Source: Nitrosotalea sp. (GTDB taxonomy: Archaea; Thermoproteota; Nitrososphaeria; Nitrososphaerales; Nitrosopumilaceae). Taken from it: 40,000 nt of DNA. The notes below the pieces were generated by a model. It was not told the DNA's origin, made no database searches, and saw only the letters and a list, made by a program, of their open reading frames with translations. This document shows positions 1 through 18,664 of the stretch, one piece after another. The stretch is taken from assembly GCA_050749285.1 (NCBI GenBank), contig JBOGQX010000062.1, positions 1 through 40,000 on the forward strand. Reading direction: 5' to 3'. The position numbers and the translations under genes were made by a program. Position 1 is the stretch's first letter. Each line of letters starts with the position of its first letter.

Positions 1-647
1 ATCGCCGTTTTTATTCTTAATTCTTTTACTTTACCAATATCATGTAAAATGCAACCTGCAATTAGTAGATCCTTGTTAAGTTCTGGATGCATTTCTATGA
101 CTCGTTCCGCAATTTTTATCATGCTTAACACATGTTCTAAAAGACCGCCACCAAAGTTATGATGATTTGATGAGGCTGCAGCTGATTTAGAATACTCTTC
201 CATAAATTTTTCATCGAAGATATGAAGTAAAAGGCGCTTTATATCCGGATTTTCAACTTGTGAAATTATGTTTTTGAAATCTACTTTCATTTTTGTTATA
301 TCTTTTTTAGTCATAGGCATGAAATCTTCCATGCTAAATTCGTCTACTTTTTTAATTAGACCAGAATCCATATTGACTGAAATACTAATTGGACCTCTAA
401 AATCATCAGTTTTACCTTTAATGTGTACTACATCCTGAACATCAAATGAAGAATAAATTGCACAAGTTTCTGTTTTTTTATCTCCTCCAAAGAAGTTTAA
501 CATTACTTCGCCAGTCTTATCTGAAACGGTAAGAGTGAACATAGTGCCATTCTTGTAAGGCCGAGGCGATTCTTTGTTTTTCACTGCAAACAAATCGTCT
601 ACTGTTTCATCTCTTTTTTTTAAATCTGCTATAAACTGTTTTTTCAC
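1..647 (-). CDS. OB-fold + HD-domain phosphohydrolase (YhaM-like); N-terminal part only, because the gene runs off the window start
   Basis: Absent from the ORF track because it is truncated by the window edge. My reverse-strand translation starts at GTG 647, preceded by an in-frame TAA at 653-651. It reads VKKQFIADLKKRDETVDDLFAVKNKESPRPYKNGTMFTLTVSDKTGEVMLNFFGG...SSNHHNFGGGLLEHVLSMIKIAERV...AGCILHDIGKV. That is an OB-fold-like N-terminus followed by HD-domain H...HD motifs. Confidence 0.6.
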   Translation of the reverse strand, partial: MKKQFIADLKKRDETVDDLFAVKNKESPRPYKNGTMFTLTVSDKTGEVMLNFFGGDKKTETCAIYSSFDVQDVVHIKGKTDDFRGPISISVNMDSGLIKKVDEFSMEDFMPMTKKDITKMKVDFKNIISQVENPDIKRLLLHIFDEKFMEEYSKSAAASSNHHNFGGGLLEHVLSMIKIAERVIEMHPELNKDLLIAGCILHDIGKVKELRIKTA

Positions 648-817: not shown

Positions 818-1069
818 CTAATGTAACTGAGGTTGTTGTTTCTCAATCTTATGAGACATCTTGTATTCTATTTCATTAATCTTGTCTTCATATCTGACAA
901 ATACAGTATTTGGAGTATCACATTCTAGACCTAATCGGCCATCGTCATACCTAACCCAATACATATCACCGCTATAATCTTCAAGTATATCCAAAATCAC
1001 GCATACTGCTCTTTCTCCTTTATCGATATTGATTATTCTTATCTTATCTCCTACCAAAAATCTATCCAT
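818..1069 (-). CDS. Small hypothetical protein (83 aa)
   Basis: Intact ORF with an ATG start and protein-like composition (DKIRIINIDKGERAVCVILDILEDYSGDMYWVRYDDGRLGLE). I recognise no motif. Confidence 0.4.
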   Translation of the reverse strand: MDRFLVGDKIRIINIDKGERAVCVILDILEDYSGDMYWVRYDDGRLGLECDTPNTVFVRYEDKINEIEYKMSHKIEKQQPQLH

Positions 1070-1607: not shown

Positions 1608-1685
1608 GTTTCCAAGAATGGTTCCGAAAGATACCATAGTGGATCCTAGTCTTATGAATCAACTTATGAAAATCCTGTTTGGATC

Positions 1686-2234
1686 TTACCGTATTACTGG
1701 CTGTCCTTTTTGTCCTATCTCTACTGCCATCATGTCTAGGAACTCTTCGGCAACTCTTTTGTGAGCAAGTGATGTAATTAGATCCTCTTTTCGCAAATAT
1801 TCAATCACAATTTTTACAATCTCATATGCTAGTGGTGCTTTCCATAGGTCAAACGCTCTATTCTCATTGATTTTTTTATAATTCGATATTGGAAAATTAC
1901 CAAAAAGAGCAGATAACACGTCAACCAGCGGTGAAGGTACAAAACATTTTCCAGAAACTAGACGGTGATCAAATATCTCTTTTACCTGTTCAGGATGCGC
2001 TACAAAACAGAATAGCTCCAAATCTTTGAGACCACTTCTAACAGTTGTTCTGACATCATACCAAAATTCAGCATTGTCCTCTTGATAGTTCTTTTTTGCT
2101 TGTGCTTTTACTCCTAACAGTTTTCGGCGTTTGTCTTCTGTAAATACTCCTCCATCGGCATCAAGATGATCCTTGAACTGATCATGAATATTCTTAAGGT
2201 CGTTTTCGACTATTTCTCGTCTATATTTGGCCAT
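1686..2234 (-). CDS. Hypothetical protein (182 aa), element-borne
   Basis: Intact ATG ORF with protein-like, predicted helical composition and no recognisable motif. It is divergent from the polymerase operon across a 56-bp spacer. Confidence 0.5.
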   Translation of the reverse strand: MAKYRREIVENDLKNIHDQFKDHLDADGGVFTEDKRRKLLGVKAQAKKNYQEDNAEFWYDVRTTVRSGLKDLELFCFVAHPEQVKEIFDHRLVSGKCFVPSPLVDVLSALFGNFPISNYKKINENRAFDLWKAPLAYEIVKIVIEYLRKEDLITSLAHKRVAEEFLDMMAVEIGQKGQPVIR

Positions 2235-2290
2235 TCTATATTATAGTATGGCCATTAATTACCTATTAAATATTCCGATCAATAGTAGGT

Positions 2291-2668
2291 GTGAAAAAAC
2301 TCCAGAAACTGCGAAACCAACTTGGTTCAGTTAAAAAGGAAATAGATTCACTAAAGACATTCAGACCGACAAAACAGACTGGACAATTACTCAGACATTT
2401 ATTTGCAGAAAATAGTCGCATTGTAAATGCAATAAAGAAATTACAATTATCCTCAGAATCAAGACAAAAAGAACGCCAACAAAGACGACAAAGAGCAAAC
2501 CTTAATCGCAGAACAAAAATGACGCGTGGTTGGAGATTTTTTAAAGCAATAAAGGAAAATTATCTTCCTGACAAATCTACAAAAGAAATCCGCTCACAAT
2601 TTTCCAAGTTTAAAAAAGGACTGGAGACAGACATCGCAGAAGTCATATGGAGGAACCCTAGTCCATGA
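2291..2668 (+). CDS. Highly basic 125-aa protein translationally coupled to pPolB (possible DNA-binding or terminal-protein candidate)
   Basis: GTG start. The stop overlaps the polymerase ATG by 4 nt (ATGA at 2665-2668). It has a Lys/Arg-rich core, SRQKERQQRRQRANLNRRTKMTRGWRF. Confidence 0.5.
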   Translation: MKKLQKLRNQLGSVKKEIDSLKTFRPTKQTGQLLRHLFAENSRIVNAIKKLQLSSESRQKERQQRRQRANLNRRTKMTRGWRFFKAIKENYLPDKSTKEIRSQFSKFKKGLETDIAEVIWRNPSP

Positions 2669-4542
2669 CTTTACAAATACACCTTCCAAGATCAAAAGCT
2701 AAAGACCTCACATACATCAAACAAGGAAGACCAAATAGAAATGTAAACCAGTCAGTGCGTAGAAAAGTAAAGGGAATTGATTCTGAAACATCTGATGGAG
2801 ACATTTTTCTAATTTGTGACTCTGATGGAAATTTCTTGGATTATCCAAACATTACATTTGATGGTATATCTGAATTTCTTTTCAAACATGAGGATTCTTG
2901 GTTATTTTGCTATAATCTACAATATGATGCTGAATGTATAATGAAATTACTGCCCTCTGAAGTATTTGATCCATATAGAAAGAAGAAACAATTACGTTTT
3001 GAATACAAAAACTATACAATTACATACATTCCAAAAAAGCAATTCAAAATACAAAAAGGAAATCATACAGTTTCGCTTTACGATATCGCACAATACTATG
3101 GCAATGTGCCGCTAGCCGATGCATATTCAGAGCACATCAAAAAACCCCTAGATCAAGACTATCTGAAAACCAAGAAAATACGAAAGAATTTCAGTCTCAG
3201 GCACTATTTTAGGCACAAAAAGCCTATTCGAAGATACTGTACTACAGATTGTATTCTAACAAAGGACTTGGCAGAGCACTGGCTAGACACATTTTTTGGA
3301 GCATATGGTTTCTATCCTGCAAACTGGGTTAGTTCTGGATATTTGGCAGAAAAAGTATTGATTCACAACGAGATACCCATTCCATTCTTTAATGATACCT
3401 TGTATGATATCCAGAAACTAGCATGGGAATCATTTTACGGTGGACGGTTTGAGCTCATACAGCGCGGGTTTATTGGCCAATGCTATCTGTATGATATCAA
3501 TTCAGCATATCCGTATGCTTTGACATTTCTTCCAGATATTACAGACGGAAAATGGATTGGAACAAGAAAAATAAATCCAGGATCTGCATTAGGATTTTTC
3601 CACATTCGTGCCCAAATAGATTATTCAGTAAAGATTGCGCCATTTCCATTTAGAACAAAAAATAATAGAATAATCTATCCAACAGGTGAGTTTGAAACTT
3701 TTGTTACACTCGAAGAATTAAAGGCAATAACAGGAGATCCAAAAATAAAATACAAGATAATTGATTCGTATCAGTTTATTCCAAATGTAAATTGTCAGTA
3801 TCCATGCAAAAAATTCATCATAGAGCAATATGATAAAAGAATGAAACTAAAAAAACAGGGCAACAAACAGGAAGTGGCAATCAAGATCATACTAAATTCC
3901 ATGTACGGTAAAACTGCCCAACGTGTGAATAACCAAATGGGAAATTTATTCAATCCCGTAATTGCATCATATATCACCGGATTTGCAAGGGCACAACTGT
4001 ACAAATTTGTGAAAGATCATCAGTTGGAAAAATACGTGGTCGCCTTTGCAACGGATTCCATTGCATGCAGGAAAAAGATTCCATGCATAGATAGTAAAAA
4101 ACTAGGTGAGATGAAACTAGACAAGGAGGGGCATGACGTGTATTTTCTCTCAAACGGTTTTTACCTGTTTAATGGAATGTGGAAAAATCGTGGAATTGGC
4201 TATGATACTGAGAAAAAGGCCGAAATCGAGCACTTGGATACCAAAATAGACAAGGATGGTAACTTGTACATTACAGTCAAAACCACGAAAACCACACACA
4301 TCAAAAGCGGAATCATATACAATAAACTCGATAAAATAGGCAAGATCGAGGAATATGAGAAGAAAATTGGCTTAAATTCTGACAGAAAGCGATACTGGCA
4401 CTCTGAATTAAAATCGTTAAAAGAAAAAACATTTTGTGATTCTTCGCCGATTCCAATTGATGTGGTTGACGATATTATTTCAAAGAAGGAGATTGAATGG
4501 ACTATGGATGATGACGGTTATGAACCTGAAAGCGAACTTTAA
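2665..4542 (+). CDS. Family B DNA polymerase, protein-primed type (pPolB)
   Basis: Exo I is GIDSETSDG (DxE), Exo II is YNLQYDAE and Exo III is YCTTD. Pol motif A is LYDINSAYPYAL, motif B is KIILNSMYGKTAQ and motif C is AFATDSI. At 625 aa it has the compact size typical of pPolBs. Confidence 0.9.
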   Translation: MTLQIHLPRSKAKDLTYIKQGRPNRNVNQSVRRKVKGIDSETSDGDIFLICDSDGNFLDYPNITFDGISEFLFKHEDSWLFCYNLQYDAECIMKLLPSEVFDPYRKKKQLRFEYKNYTITYIPKKQFKIQKGNHTVSLYDIAQYYGNVPLADAYSEHIKKPLDQDYLKTKKIRKNFSLRHYFRHKKPIRRYCTTDCILTKDLAEHWLDTFFGAYGFYPANWVSSGYLAEKVLIHNEIPIPFFNDTLYDIQKLAWESFYGGRFELIQRGFIGQCYLYDINSAYPYALTFLPDITDGKWIGTRKINPGSALGFFHIRAQIDYSVKIAPFPFRTKNNRIIYPTGEFETFVTLEELKAITGDPKIKYKIIDSYQFIPNVNCQYPCKKFIIEQYDKRMKLKKQGNKQEVAIKIILNSMYGKTAQRVNNQMGNLFNPVIASYITGFARAQLYKFVKDHQLEKYVVAFATDSIACRKKIPCIDSKKLGEMKLDKEGHDVYFLSNGFYLFNGMWKNRGIGYDTEKKAEIEHLDTKIDKDGNLYITVKTTKTTHIKSGIIYNKLDKIGKIEEYEKKIGLNSDRKRYWHSELKSLKEKTFCDSSPIPIDVVDDIISKKEIEWTMDDDGYEPESEL

Positions 4543-4639
4543 AGCGATGTTTAAACCTTGCAAAGCGTAATTTAAAGATGTCAAATTACCTAAAACCTAG
4601 CCTTAACTAGAAATCAACCTATCAAAACAGATTCAAAAT

Positions 4640-6055
4640 CTATCTTCGTTCTCTCCATTTTCGCTTTTTTGGTTTTAGTTCACGAGCCCTAGATTTGTCG
4701 GTAGCAAGGTATGGTTTTTGGGAATCACCAAACGCTATTTTCCCGACATATTCACATCCTAAAACACAATCTTTCAGTATTGGTATTATATCTCCAGGAT
4801 AGTAATTGTAAGGTTGTTGACCCAGATCACCCATTTTTCCCATATTTGTAACAAGTTCTACAAATTGAATGGCTTCAAGACCTGCTAATGCTACTACAAA
4901 TGGCATTATACTTTGTCGTGTTGGTCCACTTTCCGATTCAAGTTTTTCAATATATTTTGGATCATCAAATAGCCCATCCCTATCTCTTTGAACCTCACCA
5001 GCATCAAACGCCTTTAGACAACTCATGCATGCGCGTTCCGGACCAACTGTCTGGGCTCTGTACATACCATGAATTAGGGTTTCATTCAATACTTTGAAAG
5101 ATATTCCACCATCTACTACAGGTATTAAACATGAATATGCCAGATTATTTAGTACCTGTCTTGGCCAAGGCCTATCGACACAACTGAATATTACATCACA
5201 ATCTAATGCTTCTTTGTAGCCGTCAGGTTCTACTACGCTACTTTCAGATTTTGTACACAAAAATTTGTTTGCAGTTGCTGCTTTGGTGAGATTTTTCTGA
5301 ACTACATCAATTTTTTTCCGACCCACATCATCTTCTGAAAGACAATTCATTCTGTCAAGATTGTGGATCTTAACCTTATCGTAATCCATGATAAAAATTT
5401 CACCTACCCCAAGTCTGGCTAAGGTTTCACCAACCATTGAGCCAACACTGCCTACTCCAATTATTCCTACTTTCATCCGTGCAATGTCAGCTTGTTTTTC
5501 TTTGCCCCAAACTGTTAACGTTCTGATTTGTTTTTTACTTGTTCTGGGAGGGAATTTGATCTTTGGATTGAAGTGTATTGTTAAATTTTTGCCTACAATT
5601 CTAATAGCGGAACACCATTTTATCTTAAACGGGATAGGGTAGATTCTGCCACTCCATGTTCCGTTTCCTGCTAATGTCATCCCAACAAAAGGATAACCTG
5701 TGATTCCAAAAACCTCTCTTGAAAGGACATCTTGTTCATAATAAAGATCGGGTGACGATACATTTTGCCAGTTAACACCACCTGGATGAGTATGGATCAT
5801 TGCTAATCCACCCCCTTTCTCCCTTGCTAATTCCTTAACTCTGTCAACATATTCTGGAAGAGCTGATACTGTTCCATCACGAATTCTTTCCTTATCCTCT
5901 GGAAAGATTATGTCTCTGATGAGAACAGAATAACGTGATTTACCCTCCGCAGGATGCCAAATAGCAAAACAAATTTCCTCATCAGAAGTATCTTTCAATA
6001 GGAAATCGTTCAGTAACCTATTTGTTGATTCAGTCATTGCAATGTTGTATTCCAT
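4640..6055 (-). CDS. JAB/MPN (JAMM) metallopeptidase fused to a ThiF/MoeB/E1-like adenylating domain
   Basis: The N-terminus has E26/E27 (EEICFAIW) and H88-T-H90...S100-S-P-D103 (MIHTHPGGVNWQNVSSPD), which is a JAMM motif. The C-terminal part has the Rossmann motif G200-V-G-S-V-G205 followed by IFIMDYDKVKIHNLDRM and CVDRPWPRQVLNNLAYSCLIPVVDGG (ThiF/E1 signature). It also has Cys pairs CMSC and CVLGC, resembling a MoeB/ThiF-like Zn site. Confidence 0.85.
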   Translation of the reverse strand: MEYNIAMTESTNRLLNDFLLKDTSDEEICFAIWHPAEGKSRYSVLIRDIIFPEDKERIRDGTVSALPEYVDRVKELAREKGGGLAMIHTHPGGVNWQNVSSPDLYYEQDVLSREVFGITGYPFVGMTLAGNGTWSGRIYPIPFKIKWCSAIRIVGKNLTIHFNPKIKFPPRTSKKQIRTLTVWGKEKQADIARMKVGIIGVGSVGSMVGETLARLGVGEIFIMDYDKVKIHNLDRMNCLSEDDVGRKKIDVVQKNLTKAATANKFLCTKSESSVVEPDGYKEALDCDVIFSCVDRPWPRQVLNNLAYSCLIPVVDGGISFKVLNETLIHGMYRAQTVGPERACMSCLKAFDAGEVQRDRDGLFDDPKYIEKLESESGPTRQSIMPFVVALAGLEAIQFVELVTNMGKMGDLGQQPYNYYPGDIIPILKDCVLGCEYVGKIAFGDSQKPYLATDKSRARELKPKKRKWRERR

Positions 6056-6056
6056 T

Positions 6057-6428
6057 TCAATTAATCTCCAACCATCGGTTTACATGATCAATATAGTATT
6101 GTGAATTACGCCTGCCTGGATTCCAGTTATTGATCTGCCTACTCCAAAATCTCCAATCTCCACCTAGCGTACTTGGATTGTCAGATTTAGGAATGTTTTC
6201 AGTAAAACCATGATCTGATTTCACATGTATTCCATATGGTGCAGTAGTAGGATAATCCTGCGGTATAGGAAATCCTATATTCACGATTTTACCTTCGTAT
6301 TTTCCACTGGGTATAACATAACCAGTTATTTTGAAAATAATCTTCCCATCGGATGGAATTTTTTCATAGTTCAATAATTTACCTTTTAAGAAGTCTTCAA
6401 AATTCTGGACAGATGCATCGTCTGCCAT
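6057..6428 (-). CDS. E2/UBC-fold-like protein without any cysteine (UEV/RWD-like or non-canonical prokaryotic E2)
   Basis: It has an E2-like core, IGFPIPQDYPTTAPYGIHV (P-x-D-Y-P...P...H), and a C-terminal W-rich helix region, WRFWSRQINNW...YYIDHVNRWL. It lies 1 nt upstream of the JAB-E1 start and 8 nt downstream of the Ubl gene. The 123-aa sequence contains no Cys. Confidence 0.55.
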   Translation of the reverse strand: MADDASVQNFEDFLKGKLLNYEKIPSDGKIIFKITGYVIPSGKYEGKIVNIGFPIPQDYPTTAPYGIHVKSDHGFTENIPKSDNPSTLGGDWRFWSRQINNWNPGRRNSQYYIDHVNRWLEIN

Positions 6429-6436
6429 ATTCCATC

Positions 6437-6673
6437 TTATGCGGGGTTTATGGGTCCAGTGAATCTAGTAGTGAAATGATCTCCGTCCTTTACTTCAATT
6501 ATCTGATTAGGATCTGTGTATGTATGTTCTACTGGACCTCTCTCGCCCTTTCTTTTCTGTAACTCGTATTCTCCCGGCTTCCCACCTCCCAGTTCTATCA
6601 AAGTACCAACCTTCACATCGTCGGATTCAAGTTCAAATTTTTGACCGTTCACAAAAACAACTATTTTATGCAT
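6437..6673 (-). CDS. Small beta-grasp / ubiquitin-like protein (multiubiquitin-type single domain)
   Basis: The 78-aa sequence has the pattern KIVVFVNGQKFELESDDVKVGTLIELGG...YELQKR...IIEVKDGDHFTT. This is typical of prokaryotic Ubl domains found beside E1/E2/JAB genes. Its operon position lies between the unknown gene and the E2-like gene. Confidence 0.55.
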   Translation of the reverse strand: MHKIVVFVNGQKFELESDDVKVGTLIELGGGKPGEYELQKRKGERGPVEHTYTDPNQIIEVKDGDHFTTRFTGPINPA

Positions 6674-6690
6674 TCTTTCACCCCCATATC

Positions 6691-7284
6691 CTACCTAGCT
6701 TTTGACAAAAGCTTCAGTGCCAATTTACTTAACCAATAATGATGTGGCACATTTCTGAATCCCATCCAGTAATAATCATAACTTTCATCATACAAGTTTT
6801 TAGCACCAAGAGCAGCGACAACTTTACTATATTTATGAAGCTGTTGTTGAACGTCACCGCTTTCAAGAGTTTTTCTAATTAATCCTAAATTGTTAGTTGG
6901 TAGAGCCAAAGCATTAGCAACAACTGTCCTTGCAGTAGAACTCACTATCAAATATGCGTATAATCCTCGTCGTTCTCTTTGAAGTGCTGCATATATTTCA
7001 CGGTCAGTATCTAGCCTGCCGCCTCTTTCATATTTGAAATACACTTTCTGCTCTTTTTCTTTTTTATCTAACAGACGATATTTTTTATATGCAGGATAAA
7101 ATGCGTTATCGTTTGCACCGTTCTTGATAAATTCCCATTTGGTTTGTTGATGTGCTTCGTCTACTGCATCAAGTTTCTCACCTGCCAATAACACGTCAGC
7201 GGTTTGTGATAGAGTTCGCATTCTAGGAAAATCCTTCTTTAGTTCCTGCATCAATCTGGCTTTTGGTGAATTTATTACAGACAT
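6691..7284 (-). CDS. Unknown 197-aa protein, first gene of the Ubl operon (contains an RNxxxH motif)
   Basis: Intact ORF with a GAGGT Shine-Dalgarno-like sequence 8 nt upstream of the ATG. It lies 17 nt upstream of the Ubl gene. It is predicted helical. R177-N-V-P-H-H182 fits the HEPN-type Rx4H pattern, but this is motif-level evidence only. Confidence 0.55.
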   Translation of the reverse strand: MSVINSPKARLMQELKKDFPRMRTLSQTADVLLAGEKLDAVDEAHQQTKWEFIKNGANDNAFYPAYKKYRLLDKKEKEQKVYFKYERGGRLDTDREIYAALQRERRGLYAYLIVSSTARTVVANALALPTNNLGLIRKTLESGDVQQQLHKYSKVVAALGAKNLYDESYDYYWMGFRNVPHHYWLSKLALKLLSKAR

Positions 7285-7538
7285 GCTTCAACCTCACTAT
7301 CAGTCATGAAAATCCTAAACCTTGCCAGTTTTGGTTCGTTTTTATCCCCTAATGGATACATTAGATGTCTTTTTTATGCTCTAGTATTTAACCTATTTCC
7401 TATGAGACACCGGATGAATAGGTAGAACTCCTTCATGGATGGGTGTGCTGCACGAGACAAAACAGCATCAAATTGACCAGAAGAAATACTGTATTACAGA
7501 CAGCTTTTTATTACATAATTTATCCATGTATGGATATA

Positions 7539-7688
7539 ATGGCATATTCAAGTGGATACACATCCGTAAAAGTGCCTAAAACATTGGCTGAAAAAATCAA
7601 CGTAGTTGCTGAAAAAGAAGGCTATCGCTCGGTCTCGGAATTTTTGTTAGATGCTGCGAGAAGACGTCTAGAAGACTTTCAAAAGTAA
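7539..7688 (+). CDS. Ribbon-helix-helix (CopG/Arc-like) DNA-binding protein, 49 aa
   Basis: MAYSSGYTSVKVPKTLAEKINVVAEKEGYRSVSEFLLDAARRRLEDF shows the classic RHH pattern of beta strand, helix and helix. The track ORF starts at GTG 7443, but its first 32 aa look non-protein-like. A TATA-like TTTTTATTA at 7505-7513 lies about 26 nt before ATG 7539. An oligo-T tract follows the stop. Confidence 0.7.
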   Translation: MAYSSGYTSVKVPKTLAEKINVVAEKEGYRSVSEFLLDAARRRLEDFQK

Positions 7689-8064
7689 CTTCTTTTCTTT
7701 TTTGTTTTAAGGGCGTAGTATACTAGTGGAAACCATCGTTTGATCTGGTCGCAGTGACTAGTCATAATTTTCTTTTTCGTATATCAACTTTCGGAGAAAG
7801 AAAATCTCAAGCCACATTCCATCTAGTGGTTGTGATCGCTTTACCTTTTGACAGAATTCTTATTCACCAAGAGTGAATGGTGAATATTGCGTGTAGAATC
7901 AGCTAATCATTTTAGATCAATACATAAATAGTCGATAGTTGCTTTCTTGTAAAATATGGCGGAAATTGATTTTCACAGCAGCTCAAAAAAAATAGTAATC
8001 CCAGAAGCAGCCTTCAAGTTACTAGCAGAAAACAAGAAAAAAGACTAGTCTTAACATATTAATT

Positions 8065-9576
8065 TTATTGTGAACGAGCCACTGCCTGGGCAATAATATT
8101 TCTTACTGTTCGGACCTCTTCTCTGGACGATTCTCTTTTCCTTCTATTTGGTATTAGATAAAAAACAAATAGGTTTGGAAAGTCTTCCCATTCTTCATTT
8201 ATTTTTACGGCATATGGCGAAATTGTAGTAAGTTCTCTTAATTTATCATCTTTGGAAGTACCAAATATCAAAATAGTATTTTTTTCAGATAGTGGTTCGT
8301 ATGGTTTCCTCGGAAAATCCTCAGAAAACACGTAAATGTCTCTAAGAGGATTTCCTTTATCTTCAAACATTTCCTTTAACAAAGGTGGCGACTTTTCTAA
8401 AAAAAATGAATTAATTTTAGATAGTACAACTTTGTTATCTTCAAAGAGATCTGATTCTTCCTTAATTTTTTCGATCATCGAACTGTAATCCATAATATGT
8501 TTAAAAACCGATATTGGTAAATATCGCCTGTCTACAATCCCGAAAAATTTATGATAAGAACTTTTTCTACTAACGAATTTTTTAATTATGGAGAGAACAT
8601 TTTCATCGGTTGATTTTCCCTCAGCATATGAAGTCCAATGAAATAATTCAGCAATTTCCTCCCTCTCGTGTATTATCCTCTCAATGGCACGTCTTATTAG
8701 GGCATTAGTGGCTGTGACTGCATGATGCTGATAAAACCATTTGTACATTTTAAATCGAGCATCTAGCATATCTTCTACGTTACCTAAAGCCCTTGCATGA
8801 ATAGCAATTTCGAATTTTCCAGGTCTTTTTCTTTTTACAATGGACATATTATTAATTATTCTGGTAATGTCGGTACGCCCAAATTGCACACCTGACATTA
8901 GGCTGTCACGTAACAGATAGTCCATTCTATCAGCATCTAATTGACTTGAAATAATTTTTCTTAAAATTGAATATCCCTGAGGATATTTCTTAGCATAAGT
9001 TATTGGTGCTTTGACCAATAGTGAAGAGATTGATTTGAGAAGGTTCTCACCTCCTTGGGAATGCTGTTTAATTGTTTTTGCTATTTCTCCACTATTGACC
9101 AACTTGTACGAGAAAAACTCATGGATTGGAATATCATCTTCATCTTCCATAAACAGTTTTTTTGCTTCACTAATCTCCTTTTTGTGATAAAGTTTTGTCA
9201 CTTCAAGCATCGCTCTTTCTGCAGAATGAGAAAATGGGCCGTGACCAATATCGTGAAAGAGGCATGCCAGTCTAACACTTTTTATAATAAATTCCTTTTT
9301 CGATTTTTTGAATAGTTCATCATAGTAGTCATCCGATGTGTTTTGTATTAGTTGCGTTATAATTTGATGGCCCACGTGTAATGCACCTATAACGTGTGAA
9401 AATCGTGTTGTCACGGATCCTGGAAAGGTAAGATACGCAGTAGCTGTCTGTTTAACATAATGTAACCTATTGAGTGTGGGTAACTGTAGCAAATCATATT
9501 CCAGAGTTGTCAAAGGAATTGGTCCGTGAACAGGGTCTCCTATGATTTTTGGGAGAGACAGCTTTGGAACATCCAC
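8065..9576 (-). CDS. HD-domain dNTP triphosphohydrolase (SAMHD1 / COG1078 / dGTPase-like)
   Basis: DPVHGPIPL...LNRLHYVKQT...TRFSHVIGALHVG, CLFHDIGHGPFSHSAE and QLDADRMDYLLRDS are the hallmark motifs of SAMHD1-type HD dNTPases. It has a GTG start. Confidence 0.85.
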   Translation of the reverse strand: MDVPKLSLPKIIGDPVHGPIPLTTLEYDLLQLPTLNRLHYVKQTATAYLTFPGSVTTRFSHVIGALHVGHQIITQLIQNTSDDYYDELFKKSKKEFIIKSVRLACLFHDIGHGPFSHSAERAMLEVTKLYHKKEISEAKKLFMEDEDDIPIHEFFSYKLVNSGEIAKTIKQHSQGGENLLKSISSLLVKAPITYAKKYPQGYSILRKIISSQLDADRMDYLLRDSLMSGVQFGRTDITRIINNMSIVKRKRPGKFEIAIHARALGNVEDMLDARFKMYKWFYQHHAVTATNALIRRAIERIIHEREEIAELFHWTSYAEGKSTDENVLSIIKKFVSRKSSYHKFFGIVDRRYLPISVFKHIMDYSSMIEKIKEESDLFEDNKVVLSKINSFFLEKSPPLLKEMFEDKGNPLRDIYVFSEDFPRKPYEPLSEKNTILIFGTSKDDKLRELTTISPYAVKINEEWEDFPNLFVFYLIPNRRKRESSREEVRTVRNIIAQAVARSQ

Positions 9577-9847
9577 AGGTAGACAAGGTGAATCATGCTG
9601 ATAAATTTAGTTATTAATATCATGACAGGATGGAAAAAATCAGCTTCTATTTTGGTTAGCTCTTCTGTTTTCCAGTTTCTATCTTCCATGTATTTGTCAC
9701 AAAAAGCAGACAGCTTCTCAAATCTTTCCTTTTACACTTCAAGTTCAATGGATTTGCCACCTTCAACATTGAATCTGAAGTGCTAATTCATCATTGGAAA
9801 AAACTGGACTAAATATCTTATAGGGGAAAATTACTGCATTTTGTATG

Positions 9848-9976
9848 TCAAGTAATGTATTGTTTTGAAACCTTAACCGCAATTGGTTTGAATTGAAAAG
9901 TTTCTATAAGAATTACTAAAAGTACAATGAAAGAAATAGCAATAACACATATGGCAATAATTAGGATTGTTTCCAT
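9848..9976 (-). CDS. Possible 42-aa single-pass membrane peptide directly downstream of cas1
   Basis: My translation is METILIIAICVIAISFIVLLVILIETFQFKPIAVKVSKQYIT. It starts 14 nt after the Cas1 stop on the same strand. It is below the size cut-off of the ORF track, and short AT-rich ORFs often arise by chance. Confidence 0.2.
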   Translation of the reverse strand: METILIIAICVIAISFIVLLVILIETFQFKPIAVKVSKQYIT

Positions 9977-9990
9977 GATGTACTTTCAAA

Positions 9991-11124
9991 TCACTCTGTT
10001 CTATTAAGTTGCCCGTTGAATCCAAATTTTCTTAATTCTATACATTTCATTTTCATAATCGTAATCTCCTCCATCATCTGATAACCATCCTTCCTTCTGA
10101 TCCCACTTCTTGCTTTGTATGGTCTTTTTCTGTCAAAAATAGTAGAAAGCAAATCAATGTATTTTTTCTTCAAATCATCAGATAATACCACAATCCCATA
10201 TCTAGAAAATGTGTAATCCTTCTTGCGTATCTGATTTTGAATCTCAAGGACGCTTCTATCTATCAAATGTCTAAAGGGTTCTATCATATCATACACCAAT
10301 GCTAATTGAGACTCATGGTTTCTGTGATAGAAGCCGACATAGCAATCAAGACCTAGTGAATTGAGTTGCTTTGCTACCTCTGCATACAAGATACCAAATC
10401 CATAATTCAGAAGACCATTGATTACATCTGATGCATCTTTAGGTCTAAATGTTCTAGCATTATTCCTAGAATGAAATCCCAGCTCGGAATCAAATAATAA
10501 TGAAAAATTAGGATAATAGATTTTTGCAATGTCACTTTCAACCTTCATTATTTCACGTAGTTCATGAGCAGAATCAAGTCCCTTCAGTCGTTGTTTCATT
10601 GTTGATATTATCTTTCTAATCTTCTCTTTTACCTCTGGCTTTACCTTAAGAGAATAATTCATTCCAGAAGACTGATTATTACAGATCTGCCACTTTCTAT
10701 TGTACGAGTTATAGACTCGTTTTGGTTCTGCCACAAACTCCTCAAACAGTCTGATTTGTGATTCAATCCTTTGTGATATTAGCCACTTTCTAAGAAATTC
10801 TAACCTCTTTAGATCTCTGAAAGTATCATACTGTTTTTGTCTAACTAATGGTTCATGACCTCCAATTTTATGAAAGTAGCTGAATAACTTGCCACGCTTG
10901 TCAAGCATTACAACATTGATTTTAGAATCTGCAAGTCGTTCTAGCGCCTCAGTGGATACGTATCCCCTGCCTTGGATTACAACCTTGTCAAATGGACAAG
11001 CACTAGCTGGTAGCTCTAGAATTTCTCTTTTGTTTGAGAAAGGATCAATTCCTTGTGAAAATACCAATCGTGTGTTTTGTACTTTGATCGAGAGGCCATA
11101 GCCATGAAGGAATAAGGATTTCAT
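9991..11124 (-). CDS. cas1: Cas1-family integrase (casposase)
   Basis: Cas1 signatures are VESDIAKIYYPNF, VINGLLNYGFGILYAEV and GFYHRNHESQLALVYDMIEPFRHLIDRSV (catalytic E/H/D region). There is a 4-nt overlap with the upstream HNH gene. No Cas2 or CRISPR array is present in the window. Confidence 0.9.
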   Translation of the reverse strand: MKSLFLHGYGLSIKVQNTRLVFSQGIDPFSNKREILELPASACPFDKVVIQGRGYVSTEALERLADSKINVVMLDKRGKLFSYFHKIGGHEPLVRQKQYDTFRDLKRLEFLRKWLISQRIESQIRLFEEFVAEPKRVYNSYNRKWQICNNQSSGMNYSLKVKPEVKEKIRKIISTMKQRLKGLDSAHELREIMKVESDIAKIYYPNFSLLFDSELGFHSRNNARTFRPKDASDVINGLLNYGFGILYAEVAKQLNSLGLDCYVGFYHRNHESQLALVYDMIEPFRHLIDRSVLEIQNQIRKKDYTFSRYGIVVLSDDLKKKYIDLLSTIFDRKRPYKARSGIRRKDGYQMMEEITIMKMKCIELRKFGFNGQLNRTE

Positions 11125-11480
11125 TTCTTCGAAGAATGCCCTTTCTTGAAATTACACTGATAACATAGCGGCTGAATGTTGTCTATGCTATCGCTACCGC
11201 CTTCTAACAGAGGAATAATGTGATCTTCAGTTATCTTGTATTTGGCAGAACCTTTTGAGAATGGTATATCTTCCCATTTCCTATTACACCTAGGACATCT
11301 ATCATATTGTTTGAGTTTATCTTGAAATTCCTTATCGGTGTGGGTGCCTACCGCGTTTCTTTTTCTTGTATTGTAGGTTTTTGCCCTCAATTGCCTACAG
11401 GTCTTACAGTATTTGTGAACTTTACCACTAGTTGATGTCCAAGTGCTCCAGTTATCATGGCCTTTTCCACACTGTGTCAT
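11121..11480 (-). CDS. HNH endonuclease (119 aa)
   Basis: ITEDHIIPLLEGGSDSIDNIQPLCYQCNFKKG is an HNH motif. CxxC pairs (CKTC, CPRC, CYQC) indicate zinc binding. Confidence 0.85.
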   Translation of the reverse strand: MTQCGKGHDNWSTWTSTSGKVHKYCKTCRQLRAKTYNTRKRNAVGTHTDKEFQDKLKQYDRCPRCNRKWEDIPFSKGSAKYKITEDHIIPLLEGGSDSIDNIQPLCYQCNFKKGHSSKK

Positions 11481-11696
11481 TTACCGTAATTCGCTCTTCT
11501 TTTTGTCGGTGCCTTCAACAATGTTGTGGCATTTCCTACAATAGATCACAATATTCTGCCATCGATCATCTTTTGCTATGTGGTTTCTGTGATGAATTGT
11601 AAGATCAACCTCTGGAATTCCCTTCTTGCATCTCTCGCATTTTGCGTTAAAATATCTCAGAATTGCAGTTTGATTGAAGCGTTTTCGGCTACTCAT
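11481..11696 (-). CDS. HNH endonuclease (71 aa)
   Basis: CERC...LTIHHRNHIAKDDRWQNIVIYCRKCHNIVEG gives an HNH core with two Cys pairs. It abuts the second HNH gene with no gap. Confidence 0.75.
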   Translation of the reverse strand: MSSRKRFNQTAILRYFNAKCERCKKGIPEVDLTIHHRNHIAKDDRWQNIVIYCRKCHNIVEGTDKKKSELR

Positions 11697-11914
11697 GAAG
11701 GAATTGATCTATTCTAAACAAAATACTTTACGACCAGCGTCATATTTCTATGCGTAATTTGGGGGGATACTATTTTTATTGAACCGCAGTAAAAATGGAA
11801 TACCCCTCGTTGAAGGGAAACATGCTTTTGTCATAAATTTTATCTAATTCAGAAATTATCATTTGATTTCACAGTCGACAGATCCTTTAACTAGGAACTG
11901 TACATAGCGGAATC

Positions 11915-12256
11915 ATGGGCCAGAAAATATCAGGGATAGAGAAGTTTCTTTCTCCATCGTTAAACAAAATAGAGGAAGAATTAAGATCAATTCATGCTGA
12001 GATTAATATAGTAAAGGCAAGAATGGATGAGACTGACAATAGGTTGACAAAGTTAGAAGAGGATCATAGACGTCTTACAACTAGGATGGATAAGACCGAC
12101 AATGGACTGACAACCGAGCCAAAAATCCTAATTGATAACATAAATGAAATGGAAAAGCAGAATAGAGATGAGATTGATGTTCTAAAGCGCGTCATGGATG
12201 TCGCACAAAGAAGGTTAGTCATTCTTGAAGCCAAAATGAAAGAGCTTGGCAAATGA
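11915..12256 (+). CDS. Coiled-coil protein with internal repeat (113 aa)
   Basis: It has heptad-like charged sequence with the repeated unit RMDETDNRLTKLEE / RMDKTDNGLTTE. An antisense ORF at 12064..12252 is disregarded. Confidence 0.5.
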   Translation: MGQKISGIEKFLSPSLNKIEEELRSIHAEINIVKARMDETDNRLTKLEEDHRRLTTRMDKTDNGLTTEPKILIDNINEMEKQNRDEIDVLKRVMDVAQRRLVILEAKMKELGK

Positions 12257-12283
12257 ATTAATTCCCACTTTGTGCATTGTCTA

Positions 12284-13006
12284 CTACTTGCCCGTAGTAA
12301 TTTCTATGCTAGCACATGAAAAAGTTGAAACATCACGTATTTCACTTGTATCTTGACCTGAGAATCGATATGTATCTTTGAGGTCATTTACATAAGGATA
12401 GTATGATTGAAATTTACACTTGGTGTAATGTACGGTTTCAATTATTGAACTATCACCTGCAATAATATCTATTGCAACATCAAACAGTGGGTAGTCGGAA
12501 TTTGTCGCCGCTATATTCATGTACTGATTAATGAAATTATAGTAACTTTGTTTATCTTTAGTCGGTATTGATTCCAAATAAAATTGTGGAGGTCCACCAG
12601 AGTCTGTTGCTGGTGCGCTGGGACCACCTTCTGTTACTCCAAACATACCGATTTTTGAAAAAGTGTTAATGGTCATAGTGTTGGTAGCTGTGGTAAAATG
12701 AACTACAAACGATTGCGCCATTGTGTCAGGACTCAAATTTGAGTTGGTTGCAGTTACTGTTGTAGTTGGTATTGGATTTGGTATTTGAGTTGGGATTTGA
12801 ATTATCCCTTGAGTAATGAGATATTGTAAACCTTTAACGTATTCTGTGTCTGTGATATTTCCTTCCGACCACCACTTAGCATTATTTTTTATCCACTGAG
12901 GAATAACAATTTGTTGAGCAGAAGCCTCGAAGGATACAGTAGCAACAGCTAGAATTCCAATAATCAAAGATAGGTAAACAATTTTGATTAATTTCAATAA
13001 ATTCAT
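12284..13006 (-). CDS. Secreted or cell-surface protein (signal peptide)
   Basis: The N-terminus MNLLKLIKIVYLSLIIGILAVATVSFEASAQQ is a signal peptide. It is followed by an IPQWIKNNAKWWSEGNITDTEYVKGLQYLITQGII module that, as I recall, recurs in thaumarchaeal extracellular proteins. Confidence 0.6.
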   Translation of the reverse strand: MNLLKLIKIVYLSLIIGILAVATVSFEASAQQIVIPQWIKNNAKWWSEGNITDTEYVKGLQYLITQGIIQIPTQIPNPIPTTTVTATNSNLSPDTMAQSFVVHFTTATNTMTINTFSKIGMFGVTEGGPSAPATDSGGPPQFYLESIPTKDKQSYYNFINQYMNIAATNSDYPLFDVAIDIIAGDSSIIETVHYTKCKFQSYYPYVNDLKDTYRFSGQDTSEIRDVSTFSCASIEITTGK

Positions 13007-13087
13007 TTTTGATAAAAACTACATAAATGTATTCTAGCGAAGATGATAACTATCAGCTCTAAAATTTACGACTTTTTCAATCTTTTT

Positions 13088-15739: not shown

Positions 15740-15782
15740 AATTATTCCCTGTGTTCGTAATTTGGCTGCCCCTTTTAATACC

Positions 15783-17555
15783 TTATTGATTCAAGATCTT
15801 CAGGTAAATTCTATTTTTTACATCGACAATTCCACTATACAATATTCTAACCTCCGGCAGAGCAAGGAAAGGAAGGAAAAGTGGAATCAAGTGAGGTTGT
15901 TTGAATTTGCATCCAGCGTCAACTATTTTTGAATCAATGTCAGAATATTGTTTTGTGGCTTCTTCTACTGGCAGTTTTGATATTAGGCCTGCCACGGGCA
16001 TATCAAACTTGCAGAGAATATCACCGTCCTTTACAGCAAGCAGGCCACCCTGACTCTGGATCAGTTTGTTTGCAACAAGGGCCATGTCTTTCTCATTTGA
16101 GCCTATCACAATCATATCATTTTCATGAAAGCTTTGTGTGCAGCCAAATGCACCTATGTGAGCTCCAAAGTTCTTCAAAAATCCAACACAGTATTTGCTT
16201 CTTCCGTATGTTCTATCTATTGCAGCCACTTTCCAGATATCTTTTTCAATCGAAGCAGTAACATTTCCTTCTTTTATTTGGAGTTCATCCTGGTCTTTCT
16301 TTGTTATTATCTCAGTATCAAGCCGAATTACTAATGCCTGAACAGAAGAGAGCTTGTTTTTTACAATGAAATCTTTCTCAGTGAATTTTCTCTTTGTTTT
16401 GACCGTTTTTGTAATCCATTTTGGCATAGATAGCTTTGAAGGCTTGAAGACAAGTTCACCATGAGCTACTACTAGTTTGCCACCAACTAGAACTTTGTCT
16501 GGTTTTATTTTGTCAAGATCATCAAAGACTACCATATCCGCAACCTTGCCTGGTGCGATTCCGCCAAAATCTTTGCTCATTTTGTAATATTCAAAGCAGT
16601 TCTTTGATGCTATTGTTATTGCATCAATTGCATCCATACCTAACATTACAGATTTTCTGATGCAATGATCAATGAGACCAAATTCGAGAAGATCTTTTGG
16701 GGTTACACCATCGGTACAAAACATTAGTCTATCAAAATAAGTTCTGTTTGAAAGTATGTTTGATATCATCTTGTCCAGATCTCTTCGTATAGAACCTTCT
16801 CTCATCATAACCCACATGCCAAGTCTCAACCTCTCCATTACTTGGTCATAGTCTATTGGTTCATGGCACGAAAAGATTCCAGATGCTATGTAGGCGTTCA
16901 ATTTTTTGTCGCTTGCACCTGCAGTATGACCATTTATGATGCCATCATTTCGTAACATGAAAGATAGGCTTTGGATAGTTCTTGGATCTTTTGTTGTAAC
17001 TTTTGTCCAAGAAAATACTTCGCCCATGCCAAGTACATTATCTAAATTAAAAGCCCTTTTTTCTTCTGCTTTTGACATTGTTCTTGAATGACTAAACTTT
17101 CTGTCCACAGGAAGGCCCCCTGGAATTAAATGGAAAACTCGGATTGGGAGGTTCTTAGTCATCCTTACAAATTCTCTGAAACCCTTGTAACCACAAACAC
17201 TCACGATATCAATTGGATCTGAAAACAAGGTGGTTGTTCCAGATAGAAGTGCTTTTTTTGCAAGTTCTGAAGGTAAAATGTACTGATCTAGGTGTATATG
17301 TGAATCTGCAAATCCTGGTGAGATGTATTTTTCTTCCAAGTCTATGACTGCGGTCTTGTCTCCAATAGTGTGAGAGGCGTCTTTACCCACGTAAGCTATT
17401 CTGTCCTTTAGAATTGCTATTTGAGATTGTGAAATAATTTCTCTAGAATATACATTGACAAGTTTACAATTTTTCAAAACAATATCTGCTTTTTTTTCAC
17501 CCAGTGCAACTGCATTCAGTGATCCAATCATTGAGGCAAGAGGGGTAACCTTCAT
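15783..17555 (-). CDS. ade: Adenine deaminase-like amidohydrolase
   Basis: At 590 aa it has the ISPGFADSHIHLDQ metal-binding HxH motif after an N-terminal beta-sandwich region (DIVLKNCKLVNVYS...). Length and architecture fit adenine deaminase. Confidence 0.7.
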   Translation of the reverse strand: MKVTPLASMIGSLNAVALGEKKADIVLKNCKLVNVYSREIISQSQIAILKDRIAYVGKDASHTIGDKTAVIDLEEKYISPGFADSHIHLDQYILPSELAKKALLSGTTTLFSDPIDIVSVCGYKGFREFVRMTKNLPIRVFHLIPGGLPVDRKFSHSRTMSKAEEKRAFNLDNVLGMGEVFSWTKVTTKDPRTIQSLSFMLRNDGIINGHTAGASDKKLNAYIASGIFSCHEPIDYDQVMERLRLGMWVMMREGSIRRDLDKMISNILSNRTYFDRLMFCTDGVTPKDLLEFGLIDHCIRKSVMLGMDAIDAITIASKNCFEYYKMSKDFGGIAPGKVADMVVFDDLDKIKPDKVLVGGKLVVAHGELVFKPSKLSMPKWITKTVKTKRKFTEKDFIVKNKLSSVQALVIRLDTEIITKKDQDELQIKEGNVTASIEKDIWKVAAIDRTYGRSKYCVGFLKNFGAHIGAFGCTQSFHENDMIVIGSNEKDMALVANKLIQSQGGLLAVKDGDILCKFDMPVAGLISKLPVEEATKQYSDIDSKIVDAGCKFKQPHLIPLFLPFLALPEVRILYSGIVDVKNRIYLKILNQ

Positions 17556-17900: not shown

Positions 17901-18097
17901 TGAAAAAAGCCCAAATTCTAGTTCCAAAACCTGGAAGCAAGTTCCAACGAGTACAATGCAAAGAATGTGGTGAAGAGAGTGTTGTTTATTCACATGTTAC
18001 TAGCGTAGTTACTTGCAAAGCTTGCGGTAATACGTTAGCTGAACCAAGGGGTTCCATTGCAATAATAAATGGAAAGGTTCTAGGCAGTGCAGAATAA
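17900..18097 (+). CDS. rps27e: 30S ribosomal protein S27e (eS27)
   Basis: It has the zinc ribbon VQCKECGEESVVYSHVTSVVTCKACGNTLAEPRG. There is a 1-nt overlap (TAATG) with rpl44e. Confidence 0.9.
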   Translation: MKKAQILVPKPGSKFQRVQCKECGEESVVYSHVTSVVTCKACGNTLAEPRGSIAIINGKVLGSAE

Positions 18098-18664
18098 ATC
18101 GTAGTCTTTTTTTGTGTTAAGATTTATCGCAATTCGTTTATCATCAAGTACTATGTATGATTCTCTTACCTCATTCATTTCCAAAATCTCGTTAGGATTT
18201 ACAATAGAGATACCTGTGTACGCGCATTCCTTTTTGTCATAACTCAGAAGATATTCCGGTTTTAAACCAAGTACATCCAAAAATTTCTTACTAACAAGAA
18301 CACTGAGCCATGGCTCTTTGTTTTGTCCATGTAGCACAATTTCTTTTACAATTACTGCATCCAGGAGAGGAAGATCCCCAGATGTTACAAAGACTTGTTC
18401 ATCAAGTTTGGAAAGTGTTTCGTTAAGATCATTGACATAACCGTTTCCTTTAGTTTCCACAGTTAGAACTCCCAACTCATTAACAAATTGATGTGTTTTA
18501 GGCGCGTTGGGGCTAGTAGCACAGACTACTTTTGAGAAACATCCTGATTCTTGTAGTGCAGTTATTACATGTTGTATTATGGGTTTTTTGTATTTGAGAA
18601 GAAGTTTTTCTTCTTTTGACTCCATCCTTGTACCCTTACCACCACACATTACAAGTCCTATCAT
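18080..18664 (-). CDS. cobY: Adenosylcobinamide-phosphate guanylyltransferase, archaeal type (CobY)
   Basis: It has the nucleotidyltransferase N-terminus MIGLVMCGGKGTRM and is about 194 aa. It overlaps cobS by 4 nt within the cobamide late-step cluster. Confidence 0.7.
   Translation of the reverse strand: MIGLVMCGGKGTRMESKEEKLLLKYKKPIIQHVITALQESGCFSKVVCATSPNAPKTHQFVNELGVLTVETKGNGYVNDLNETLSKLDEQVFVTSGDLPLLDAVIVKEIVLHGQNKEPWLSVLVSKKFLDVLGLKPEYLLSYDKKECAYTGISIVNPNEILEMNEVRESYIVLDDKRIAINLNTKKDYDLFCTA

Follow-up and report, generated by a model that had tools for sequence, protein, structure and literature searches.

A probable family-1-type casposon at the 3′ end of guaA in Nitrosotalea and its Bub-like and dNTPase-like cargo

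What kind of genetic element brings together a cas1 gene, a family B DNA polymerase (PolB) gene, two HNH endonuclease genes and a block of defence-like genes, and where does such an element begin and end? This question is raised by a 40,000-nt stretch of DNA (contig JBOGQX010000062.1, positions 1 to 40,000; hereafter the window) that its source assigns to a metagenome-assembled genome (MAG) of Nitrosotalea sp. and whose flanks are syntenic with Nitrosotalea genomes. Casposons, which are self-synthesizing DNA transposons, are proposed ancestors of the CRISPR adaptation machinery, and to our knowledge few of them have been delineated precisely. The island in the window is very probably a family-1-type casposon inserted at the 3′ end of guaA, the GMP synthase gene, in the Nitrosotalea chromosome. 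Noteworthy are its guaA target, its distinct Cas1 clade and its Bub-like and dNTPase (deoxynucleoside triphosphate triphosphohydrolase) cargo; otherwise it is a casposon of a known kind.

Ends, target site and core genes of the element

All coordinates refer to the window, with negative values lying before its start. From its left end at about −1885 to its right end at 11777 the element measures 13,663 bp. Its left terminal inverted repeat (TIR) and the adjoining copy of the target-site duplication (TSD) are found at the guaA stop codon, some 1.9 kb ahead of the window. We read this left arm on a second assembly of the same population (locus L006), which continues past the window start, as judged by blastn of the window against it, and which is 99.99% identical to the window across the shared 12.2 kb. 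The 50-nt TIRs agree at 41/50 positions, the left one beginning with AAAAATAGAATACCC and ending with GTCGTAA. The left TSD copy is the last 13 nt of guaA, that is, its final four codons plus the T of the stop codon, and since TIR bases 1-2 (AA) rebuild this stop codon, guaA stays intact. Cas1, PolB and a conserved gene upstream of polB all belong to a single unit, which TIRs of about 50 nt and an exact 13-nt duplication delimit. Its core genes, the two HNH genes upstream of cas1 and its right end are as follows.

1686-2234, minus strand: 182-aa gene, divergent from the polB operon and conserved in many family-1 casposons
2291-2668, plus strand: 125-aa gene, candidate terminal protein, overlapping the start of polB by 4 nt
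2665-4542, plus strand: family B DNA polymerase of probable protein-primed type, 625 aa, with conserved Exo I-III and Pol A-C motifs
9991-11124, minus strand: Cas1 casposase, 377 aa (Pfam Cas_Cas1, E=1.3e-47)
11121-11480, minus strand: HNH endonuclease, 119 aa (PF01844, E=2.3e-12)
11481-11696, minus strand: HNH endonuclease, 71 aa (PF01844, E=8.6e-7)
11728-11777: right TIR, 50 nt, matching the reverse complement of the left TIR (L006 14120-14071)
11778-11790: right 13-nt TSD copy, ATTGAACCGCAGT, with an exact duplicate at L006 14133-14121

As the boundary, the 13-nt TSD plus TIR was preferred to a 28-nt att-like direct repeat, since only the reading with TSD and TIR has symmetrical TIR ends and is reproduced in nine elements. 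Other repeat pairs in the window (e.g. 2215-2243 with 12004-12032) were judged to be chance matches, being no better than background and lying off the TIR and TSD. The rest of the window (27 kb) is housekeeping DNA with thermosome, adenine deaminase and cobalamin synthesis genes, among others.

The Cas1 protein scores 139 bits against the generic NCBIfam model TIGR00287 (cutoff 71.7) and reaches none of the CRISPR-subtype-specific NCBIfam cutoffs. The motif residues E196, H267 and D279/E282 are present, and Pfam detects no domain beyond Cas1 itself. The best PDB match is 6opm (E=1.8e-26), which we take to be the Methanosarcina casposase, its database label reading just Cas1; the CRISPR Cas1 4n06 scores 2.9e-24. 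The alignment extends to residue 339 of the 377 in the window protein and to residue 323 of the 431 aa of 6opm, which therefore has about 100 further C-terminal residues. Neither the window nor the 8 kb to its left contains a cas2, another cas gene or a CRISPR array, the window has no tRNA, tandem array or Rfam/CRISPR match, and no second integrase was found. The second HNH gene (11121-11480) overlaps cas1 by 4 nt, while the two HNH open reading frames (ORFs) share one frame and are separated by just a TAA and an immediate ATG; they may represent a single gene that has been interrupted, or else a deliberate pair. The other casposons sampled yielded no homologues of the HNH ORFs.

The polymerase has the residues expected of Exo I (D39/E41), Exo II (N84/D88), Exo III (Y191/D195), motif A (D277), motif B (K407) and motif C (D464). 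Motif C (4042-4056, residues 460-464) reads ATDS and not the usual DTDS. As ATDS is present in 17/17 family-1 casposon polymerases checked, both ef-2-linked and guaA-linked (including loci L091-L142), it is a conserved family trait and not a sign of decay. The protein-primed polymerase family PF03175 is matched by 14/18 polymerases of casposon relatives, with a best E of 4.3e-26, among them the PolB of locus L002, which is 86% identical to the window copy. The missing PF03175 match of the window PolB is probably a HMMER filter effect, and this case shows that the polymerase family can escape a Pfam scan run with one sequence. Searches of the PDB with the single sequence, a 4-sequence profile and an 18-sequence profile returned only chance or weak motif-B matches. 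The 125-aa gene is found upstream of polB in every related casposon, including the ef-2-linked ones, at 37-74% identity. A terminal-protein role has been proposed for the gene in this position (PMC4046053), and the 125-aa product may be such a protein. Homologues of the 182-aa gene adjoin the 125-aa/PolB pair in L001, L002, L004, L091, L105 and L142.

The guaA site in related genomes

We scanned the guaA site in one genome per species, which yielded 37 Nitrosotalea-like loci, and added metagenomic loci for the comparison of elements. In L028, L029 and L032, as in Nitrososphaerales, guaA converges on pfkB without a spacer, and this abutting arrangement is the ancestral empty site. In most Nitrosotalea, including N. 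devanaterra (L023), only a PKD-domain gene lies between the two, with no TIR. Among the species representatives a TIR after guaA is absent in 24/37 and present in 12-13.

Nine elements at guaA, eight of them besides that of the window, have perfect 13-nt TSDs and a common TIR consensus, and positions A1, A11 and T13 of the TSD are invariant in all nine variants. Their sizes are 1,097, 2,248, 5,071, 6,068, 7,760, 7,931, 8,480, 11,677 and 13,663 bp, the window element (13.7 kb) being the largest. The two smallest are non-autonomous miniatures with intact TIRs and TSDs (L027, 11524-12620; L037, 3486-5733), the second of which keeps only a fragment of Cas1. The guaA site of other genomes thus holds autonomous casposons and miniature derivatives, as well as lone TIRs and tandem remnants. 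Several elements are directly followed by another left TIR, which implies tandem insertion, and the window itself contains what looks like a decayed tandem casposon remnant that reaches almost to pfkB.

11791-13006: apparent decayed tandem second element, with a degenerate left TIR (11791 to about 11840) and two ORFs
11915-12256, plus strand: 113-aa ORF of the remnant, of which L012 and L027 have homologues at the same site
12284-13006, minus strand: 240-aa ORF of the remnant, with short matches to part of a protein that the L001 casposon carries as cargo

The window Cas1 is identical in sequence to one from a Nitrosotalea sp. MAG. It belongs to a clade, at 73-85% identity, that always stands beside guaA; on long contigs these Cas1 genes are accompanied by PolB and the 125-aa gene, with pfkB/thermosome on one side and GMP synthase on the other. 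Outside this clade, the closest Cas1 proteins are ef-2-linked and 30-36% identical over their full length (E about 1e-60). In this ef-2-linked group, which sits directly downstream of EF-2 genes, PolB is 46-62% and the 125-aa protein 37-48% identical to the products described here. Cas1-PolB beside EF-2 is the classical family-1 arrangement of Nitrosopumilus (PMC4046053, PMC6563490).

Two further observations bear on mobility. The casposon core is inverted relative to guaA between L001 and L004, and Cas1 and PolB have discordant nearest relatives, which favours mosaic and mobile elements. Taken together, the core inversion and the discordant relatives point to repeated site-specific integration and recombination between elements, and not to a fixed relic. 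A 316-aa gene (L001 9034-9984, L004 15722-16672; 93.6% identical) always stands beside the guaA-proximal TIR in the same orientation, though the core is inverted. This combination of a fixed 316-aa gene and an inverted core suggests internal inversion or the exchange of end segments.

The family-1 casposase of N. koreensis AR1 produces a 13-bp TSD for which A1, A11 and T13 are indispensable (PMC8464041), and on the opposite strand the guaA target would be preceded by TTT, like the AR1 leader. Going by the AR1 work and the casposon model, Cas1 would attack a sequence-specific target at two points staggered by 13 bp and join the 3′ ends of the TIRs to it, and the polymerase would copy the element, primed by the 125-aa protein.

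The original prediction had read the island from its sequence as a thaumarchaeal family-1 casposon, and this assignment is borne out by the TIR (41/50), the TSD (13/13), the empty sites, the eight sister elements, the conserved gene upstream of polB and the Nitrosotalea host. The genes that it named (Cas1, the HNH pair, the 625-aa PolB, ThiF/E1, Prok-E2_E, a ribbon-helix-helix (RHH) gene, and HD with HD_assoc_2) are recovered as ORFs with Pfam support where it had put them. The Cas1 motifs that it quoted as a catalytic signature are present, as are the complete exonuclease and polymerase motifs of PolB, the tight packing of HNH-HNH-cas1 and the lack of Cas2, other cas genes and a CRISPR array in the window. 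The TIR/TSD search and the comparison with related genomes that it proposed gave, respectively, the 50-nt TIRs with their 13-nt TSD and the abutting guaA-pfkB pairs of L028, L029 and L032. Its extent of 1644-11901 has to be redrawn: 1644 is no boundary, as the element continues to about −1885, and the right end is at 11777, with the TSD reaching 11790.

Cargo genes and an internal copy of the end junction

The polB and cas1 genes converge, and most of the cargo fills the gap between them, whose content varies among relatives. The cargo genes of the window, together with an internal site that resembles the element's right end, are the following.

1-647, minus strand: YhaM-like OB-fold plus HD nuclease, 318 aa, of which the first 215 codons lie in the window and the rest before its start (NCBIfam YhaM, E=6.6e-58)
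818-1069, minus strand: 83-aa ORF without known family, called as a gene in L006 and L007
4640-6055, minus strand: JAB-E1 fusion (BubCD-like), 471 aa (ThiF, E=1.2e-28)
6057-6428, minus strand: E2-like protein (BubB-like), 123 aa (Pfam Prok-E2_E, E=1e-10, 41.9 bits against a cutoff of 25)
6437-6673, minus strand: single β-grasp ubiquitin-like (Ubl) protein (BubA-like), 78 aa (AlphaFold2 pLDDT 93.5)
6691-7284, minus strand: 197-aa protein with no Pfam, PADLOC or NCBIfam match
7530-7688, plus strand: CopG-type RHH protein (RHH_1, E=1.1e-5), 52 aa as called in L006
7969-8002: inverted copy of the right end junction, with a TSD-like 13-mer in reverse followed by a left-TIR-like start, AAAAATAGTAATCCC, at 7988-8002
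8065-9576, minus strand: SAMHD1/EF1143-type HD dNTP triphosphohydrolase-like protein, 503 aa (HD and HD_assoc_2 above Pfam cutoffs)

Three adjacent genes make up what appears from sequence and predicted structure to be a Bub/6E-type Ubl-E2-JAB/E1 cassette, albeit one that lacks two defining Bub features, the Ubl-E2 fusion and the DUF6527 protein. The best PDB match of the JAB-E1 protein is Citrobacter BubCD (9ea5, E=2.5e-19, residues 6-320), which covers both domains; its JAMM motif, HTHPGG...SSPD, is at residue 88, and the Pfam Prok-JAB match has E=0.025. The E2-like protein has no cysteine at all and carries K-S-D-H at residues 70-73, matching the Ser-x-His of Type I Bub E2s, which form oxyester intermediates (bioRxiv 10.1101/2024.11.21.623953). 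For the Ubl protein, the top Foldseek matches in the PDB are the bacterial multi-ubiquitin structures 8u38 and 9d5b and Citrobacter BubA (9ea8_B), at probability 1.0 and TMq 0.65-0.75. Its conserved C-terminus reads ...FTG-PINPA, the conserved G73 being followed by PINPA in an alignment of 34 homologues. The Ubl and E2 proteins are encoded by separate ORFs both here and in four thaumarchaeal relatives, and a Pfam scan of all island ORFs of at least 60 aa gave no match to the DUF6527 serine protease (BubE). The trio recurs in thaumarchaeal variable regions, beside a DNA methyltransferase gene, an AIPR gene or insertion sequence (IS) elements, and in Rhizobium.

The neighbouring 197-aa protein lacks cysteines and belongs to a small family (33 representatives among 1.84 billion) that showed no linkage to the trio elsewhere. 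An upstream GTG at 7443 would lengthen the RHH ORF. The HD protein matches 2o6i (E=1.4e-27) and, over residues 9-295, SAMHD1 (about 2e-19) in the PDB; its matches to PADLOC dGTPase (2.7e-9) and to NCBIfam antiphage_dGTPase (28.7 bits against a cutoff of 400) are partial only. PADLOC has no match for the E2, Ubl, 197-aa or β-CASP protein. The last of these is encoded in the left arm before the window start, by a 467-aa β-CASP/MBL nuclease gene (RNase J family, E=3.3e-22), and both this and the YhaM match fall under the curated NCBIfam cutoffs. We considered the β-CASP and YhaM-like genes as host genes outside the element and rejected this placement, as they lie inside the TSDs and are tied to a cas1 fragment in the metagenomic contig L123. 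In that contig (41-3236) the 83-aa/YhaM-like/β-CASP block adjoins the first 300 nt of cas1. The contig derives by deletion from an element with the layout of the one in the window, equivalent to the loss of about 948 to about 10,800 of the window, and its junction implies that the left-arm genes travel with this casposon lineage.

Other family-1 casposons carry different genes of defence or conflict type. At the same cargo position L004 has a DUF6996/6997/7226 protein. The cas1-polB gap holds an AAA_15/AAA_21 ATPase in L098 (11551-12831) and a BrxC/D-like ATPase in L109 (3284-4543). L112 encodes two TIR-domain proteins (11096-13057, 15762-17105), of which the TIR-TPR protein lies in the gap and the other, ThsB_TIR-like, beyond polB, and in L002 SLFN_AlbA_2 and NYN proteins (18025-19639) lie on the polB-side arm, outside the gap. 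The Ubl cassette and dNTPase genes occur in none of the other casposons sampled, and neither a Ubl conjugation cassette nor a dNTPase was found as casposon cargo in the casposon literature searched. The original prediction had placed the cargo between the two core modules, which describes most of it and omits the β-CASP and YhaM-like nucleases of the left arm. The Ubl module that it recognised is real and can now be described more sharply as Bub/6E-type. The novelty that it claimed for the cargo is overstated, since family-1 casposons with OLD, HEPN, NERD, HNH and Cas4 nucleases have already been described (PMC6563490) and other metagenomic ones have the TIR-domain, BrxC/D-like and AAA_15 genes just listed. 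Its suggestion that the cargo is immune in function and that casposons may ferry immune systems is plausible by association. Most likely the cargo would act in conflict with viruses or rival mobile elements, to the joint benefit of host and element.

The internal site at 7969-8002 lies between the converging RHH and HD genes and, together with the right TIR, brackets HD-cas1-HNH-HNH. It agrees with 11763-11796 in 27/34 positions, far above the null, the maximum in 500 Markov simulations being 24/34. Of 7 complete elements, that of the window alone has it, and a search for the further internal TIR expected of a nested element gave none. The site may be an inversion scar across a former tandem pair, or it may be an alternative end.

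Alternative readings, related systems and meaning

Several alternatives to a single mobile casposon have to be weighed. The suggestion that Cas1 comes from a CRISPR-Cas locus and the polymerase from an unrelated neighbouring provirus, which the original prediction had itself named as the outcome that would overturn it, has next to no probability. NCBI and JGI do label the protein 'CRISPR-associated endonuclease Cas1', yet it stays under every CRISPR-subtype cutoff, there is no array, Cas2 or cas gene across the 40 kb and the 8 kb of left flank, and cas1 and polB share one TIR/TSD-bounded unit, co-occur in all relatives and are joined by no second integrase; this reading is therefore refuted. 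A more serious alternative holds that the element is a fixed, vertically inherited and immobile relic whose Cas1 and PolB have been kept for a host function. Divergence within the Cas1 clade (73-85% identity) is similar to that of the host genes pfkB (66-73%) and guaA (88-90%), its locus is always the same, IMG/VR yielded no free copies, and the TIRs are 82% identical. A relic is nevertheless hard to square with the patchy presence and absence among close species with clean empty sites, with a non-coding right TSD copy that still matches at 13/13 positions, or with the occurrence of both orientations and the discordant relationships of Cas1 and PolB. The miniatures of L027 and L037 with their intact TIRs and TSDs and the full length of all core ORFs speak against it too, and we consider it very unlikely.

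The internal junction raises the possibility that the 13.7-kb unit arose when two TIR-bounded units fused, or that the 3.8-kb segment 7988-11777 is a polymerase-less mini-casposon. A tandem pair at guaA would have been inverted by recombination between its outermost inverted TIRs, and the inverted junction at 7969-8002 would then part the polB-bearing side from the HD-cas1-HNH-HNH side. Besides the inverted match itself, the middle 13-mer of the site agrees with the TSD at 9/13 positions in reverse and at 6/13 in direct orientation, and the sequence on both sides of the site has a weak likeness to the TIR (p about 0.03-0.07). The guaA site often holds tandem arrays and lone TIRs, one following the window element at 11791, and the inversion of the core between L001 and L004 fits as well. 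On the other hand, each half would be without one core gene, although the relatives all have convergent, neighbouring cas1 and polB in one element; moreover, a single internal end is detectable, the similarity of the flanks to the TIR interior is marginal, and no other element has such a site. We therefore regard a fusion as unlikely. Bolder still, and in our view doubtful, is the idea that the junction is a functional or recently functional alternative end and that guaA casposons grow and reshuffle by fusing tandem copies. The fusion would proceed by TIR-TIR recombination or intramolecular casposase attack, and 7988-11777 could then move without a polymerase, which we hold to be a similarly long shot. 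If this were true, cas1 would travel with a defence-type gene and without the polymerase, an intermediate of the kind postulated for the birth of the CRISPR adaptation module.

The single-casposon reading also has observations to contend with. The left TIR and TSD lie outside the window and are known only from L006, and the TIRs have diverged, with 9 mismatches in 50. Scans of IMG/VR with Cas1 and PolB gave no excised, episomal or free linear copy and no related viral contig. The window PolB reaches no Pfam cutoff, with a weak PF00136 match (E=0.0033), and its assignment as a protein-primed polymerase, which we regard as probable, rests on its relatives and motifs. Given the internal junction, the unit may be a fusion product and not a simple core with captured cargo. 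As to the cargo, its proteins miss the curated cutoffs of every defence-family model that they partly match; the E2, Ubl and 197-aa proteins match no defence-family model in PADLOC or NCBIfam; and the Bub-type cassette is without the DUF6527 protease (BubE) of bacterial Bub operons, which are themselves without demonstrated function (bioRxiv 10.1101/2024.11.21.623953). These last points, and the position of the HD gene directly downstream of cas1 on the same strand, would also suit cargo that is not host defence and that instead serves the element, through dNTP pools or protein modification in protein-primed replication, or counters host defences and competing elements. We judge this somewhat unlikely. 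The Ubl-E2-E1 trio also stands free in variable regions without a casposon, near a methyltransferase gene, an AIPR abortive-infection gene and IS elements, and sister casposons have other defence-type genes at the same position. In addition, SAMHD1-like and dGTPase enzymes are established depleters of dNTPs against viruses.

Read as a casposon, the element resembles NitAR1-C1 and other family-1 members (PMC4046053, PMC6563490, PMC8464041) in its thaumarchaeal host, its PolB, probably of the protein-primed type, with a small gene just upstream, its compact Cas1 without a helix-turn-helix domain, its TIRs and its 13-bp TSD with A1/A11/T13. It shares with them the insertion at the extreme 3′ end of an essential gene that is not destroyed, the tandem arrays at the site and the element-specific cargo. 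The differences lie in the target, which is guaA here and ef-2, purD or an intergenic site in known family-1 elements (PMC6563490), in a Cas1 that is just 30-36% identical to the ef-2-linked proteins, in a TIR that ends in ...CTATTTTT and not in TTCTA, and in the Ubl conjugation cassette and dNTPase among the cargo. In the literature searched we found no mention of guaA or GMP synthase as a casposon target. NitNF5-C1, the largest thaumarchaeal casposon described (PMC6563490), likewise has a family-1 core enlarged by extra nuclease genes; its extras are HNH, OLD and NERD nucleases and genes shared with other integrated elements. It differs in lying at ef-2 and encoding a XerC-like recombinase, with no Ubl/E1/E2 or HD dNTPase reported.

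The cassette has its closest parallel in Type I Bub (6E.1/DUF6527) operons such as the Citrobacter BubAB-BubCD-BubE (bioRxiv 10.1101/2024.11.21.623953, 10.1101/2024.11.21.623966), with which it shares the JAB-E1 fusion, a Cys-free E2 with Ser-x-His, a multi-ubiquitin-type β-grasp Ubl and a compact operon on mobile or variable DNA. Unlike those operons, it has unfused Ubl and E2 proteins, no DUF6527 serine protease, one β-grasp domain with a five-residue tail after the conserved Gly, and an archaeal host in which it is carried on a casposon. A broader likeness is to Tn7-like transposons (attTn7, at the 3′ end of glmS) and pipolins (PMC8649781, PMC11551731). These also insert site-specifically behind an essential gene and have a variable cargo bay rich in defence-type genes, and pipolins too encode a PolB; in contrast, they are bacterial elements with unrelated integrases (TnsABC or tyrosine recombinases as opposed to Cas1).

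Collectively, our results identify the 3′ end of guaA as a new and heavily used attachment site, with a TIR in about one third of related species. It offers a second natural target for testing how Cas1 reads DNA, following the same A1/A11/T13 rule as AR1, the single family-1 casposase studied biochemically. The cargo bay between polB and cas1 lends weight to the idea that conflict genes are shuttled by casposons, as they are by Tn7-like elements and pipolins, and this minimal archaeal three-gene version of Bub without the DUF6527 protease may help to clarify what Bub systems do.

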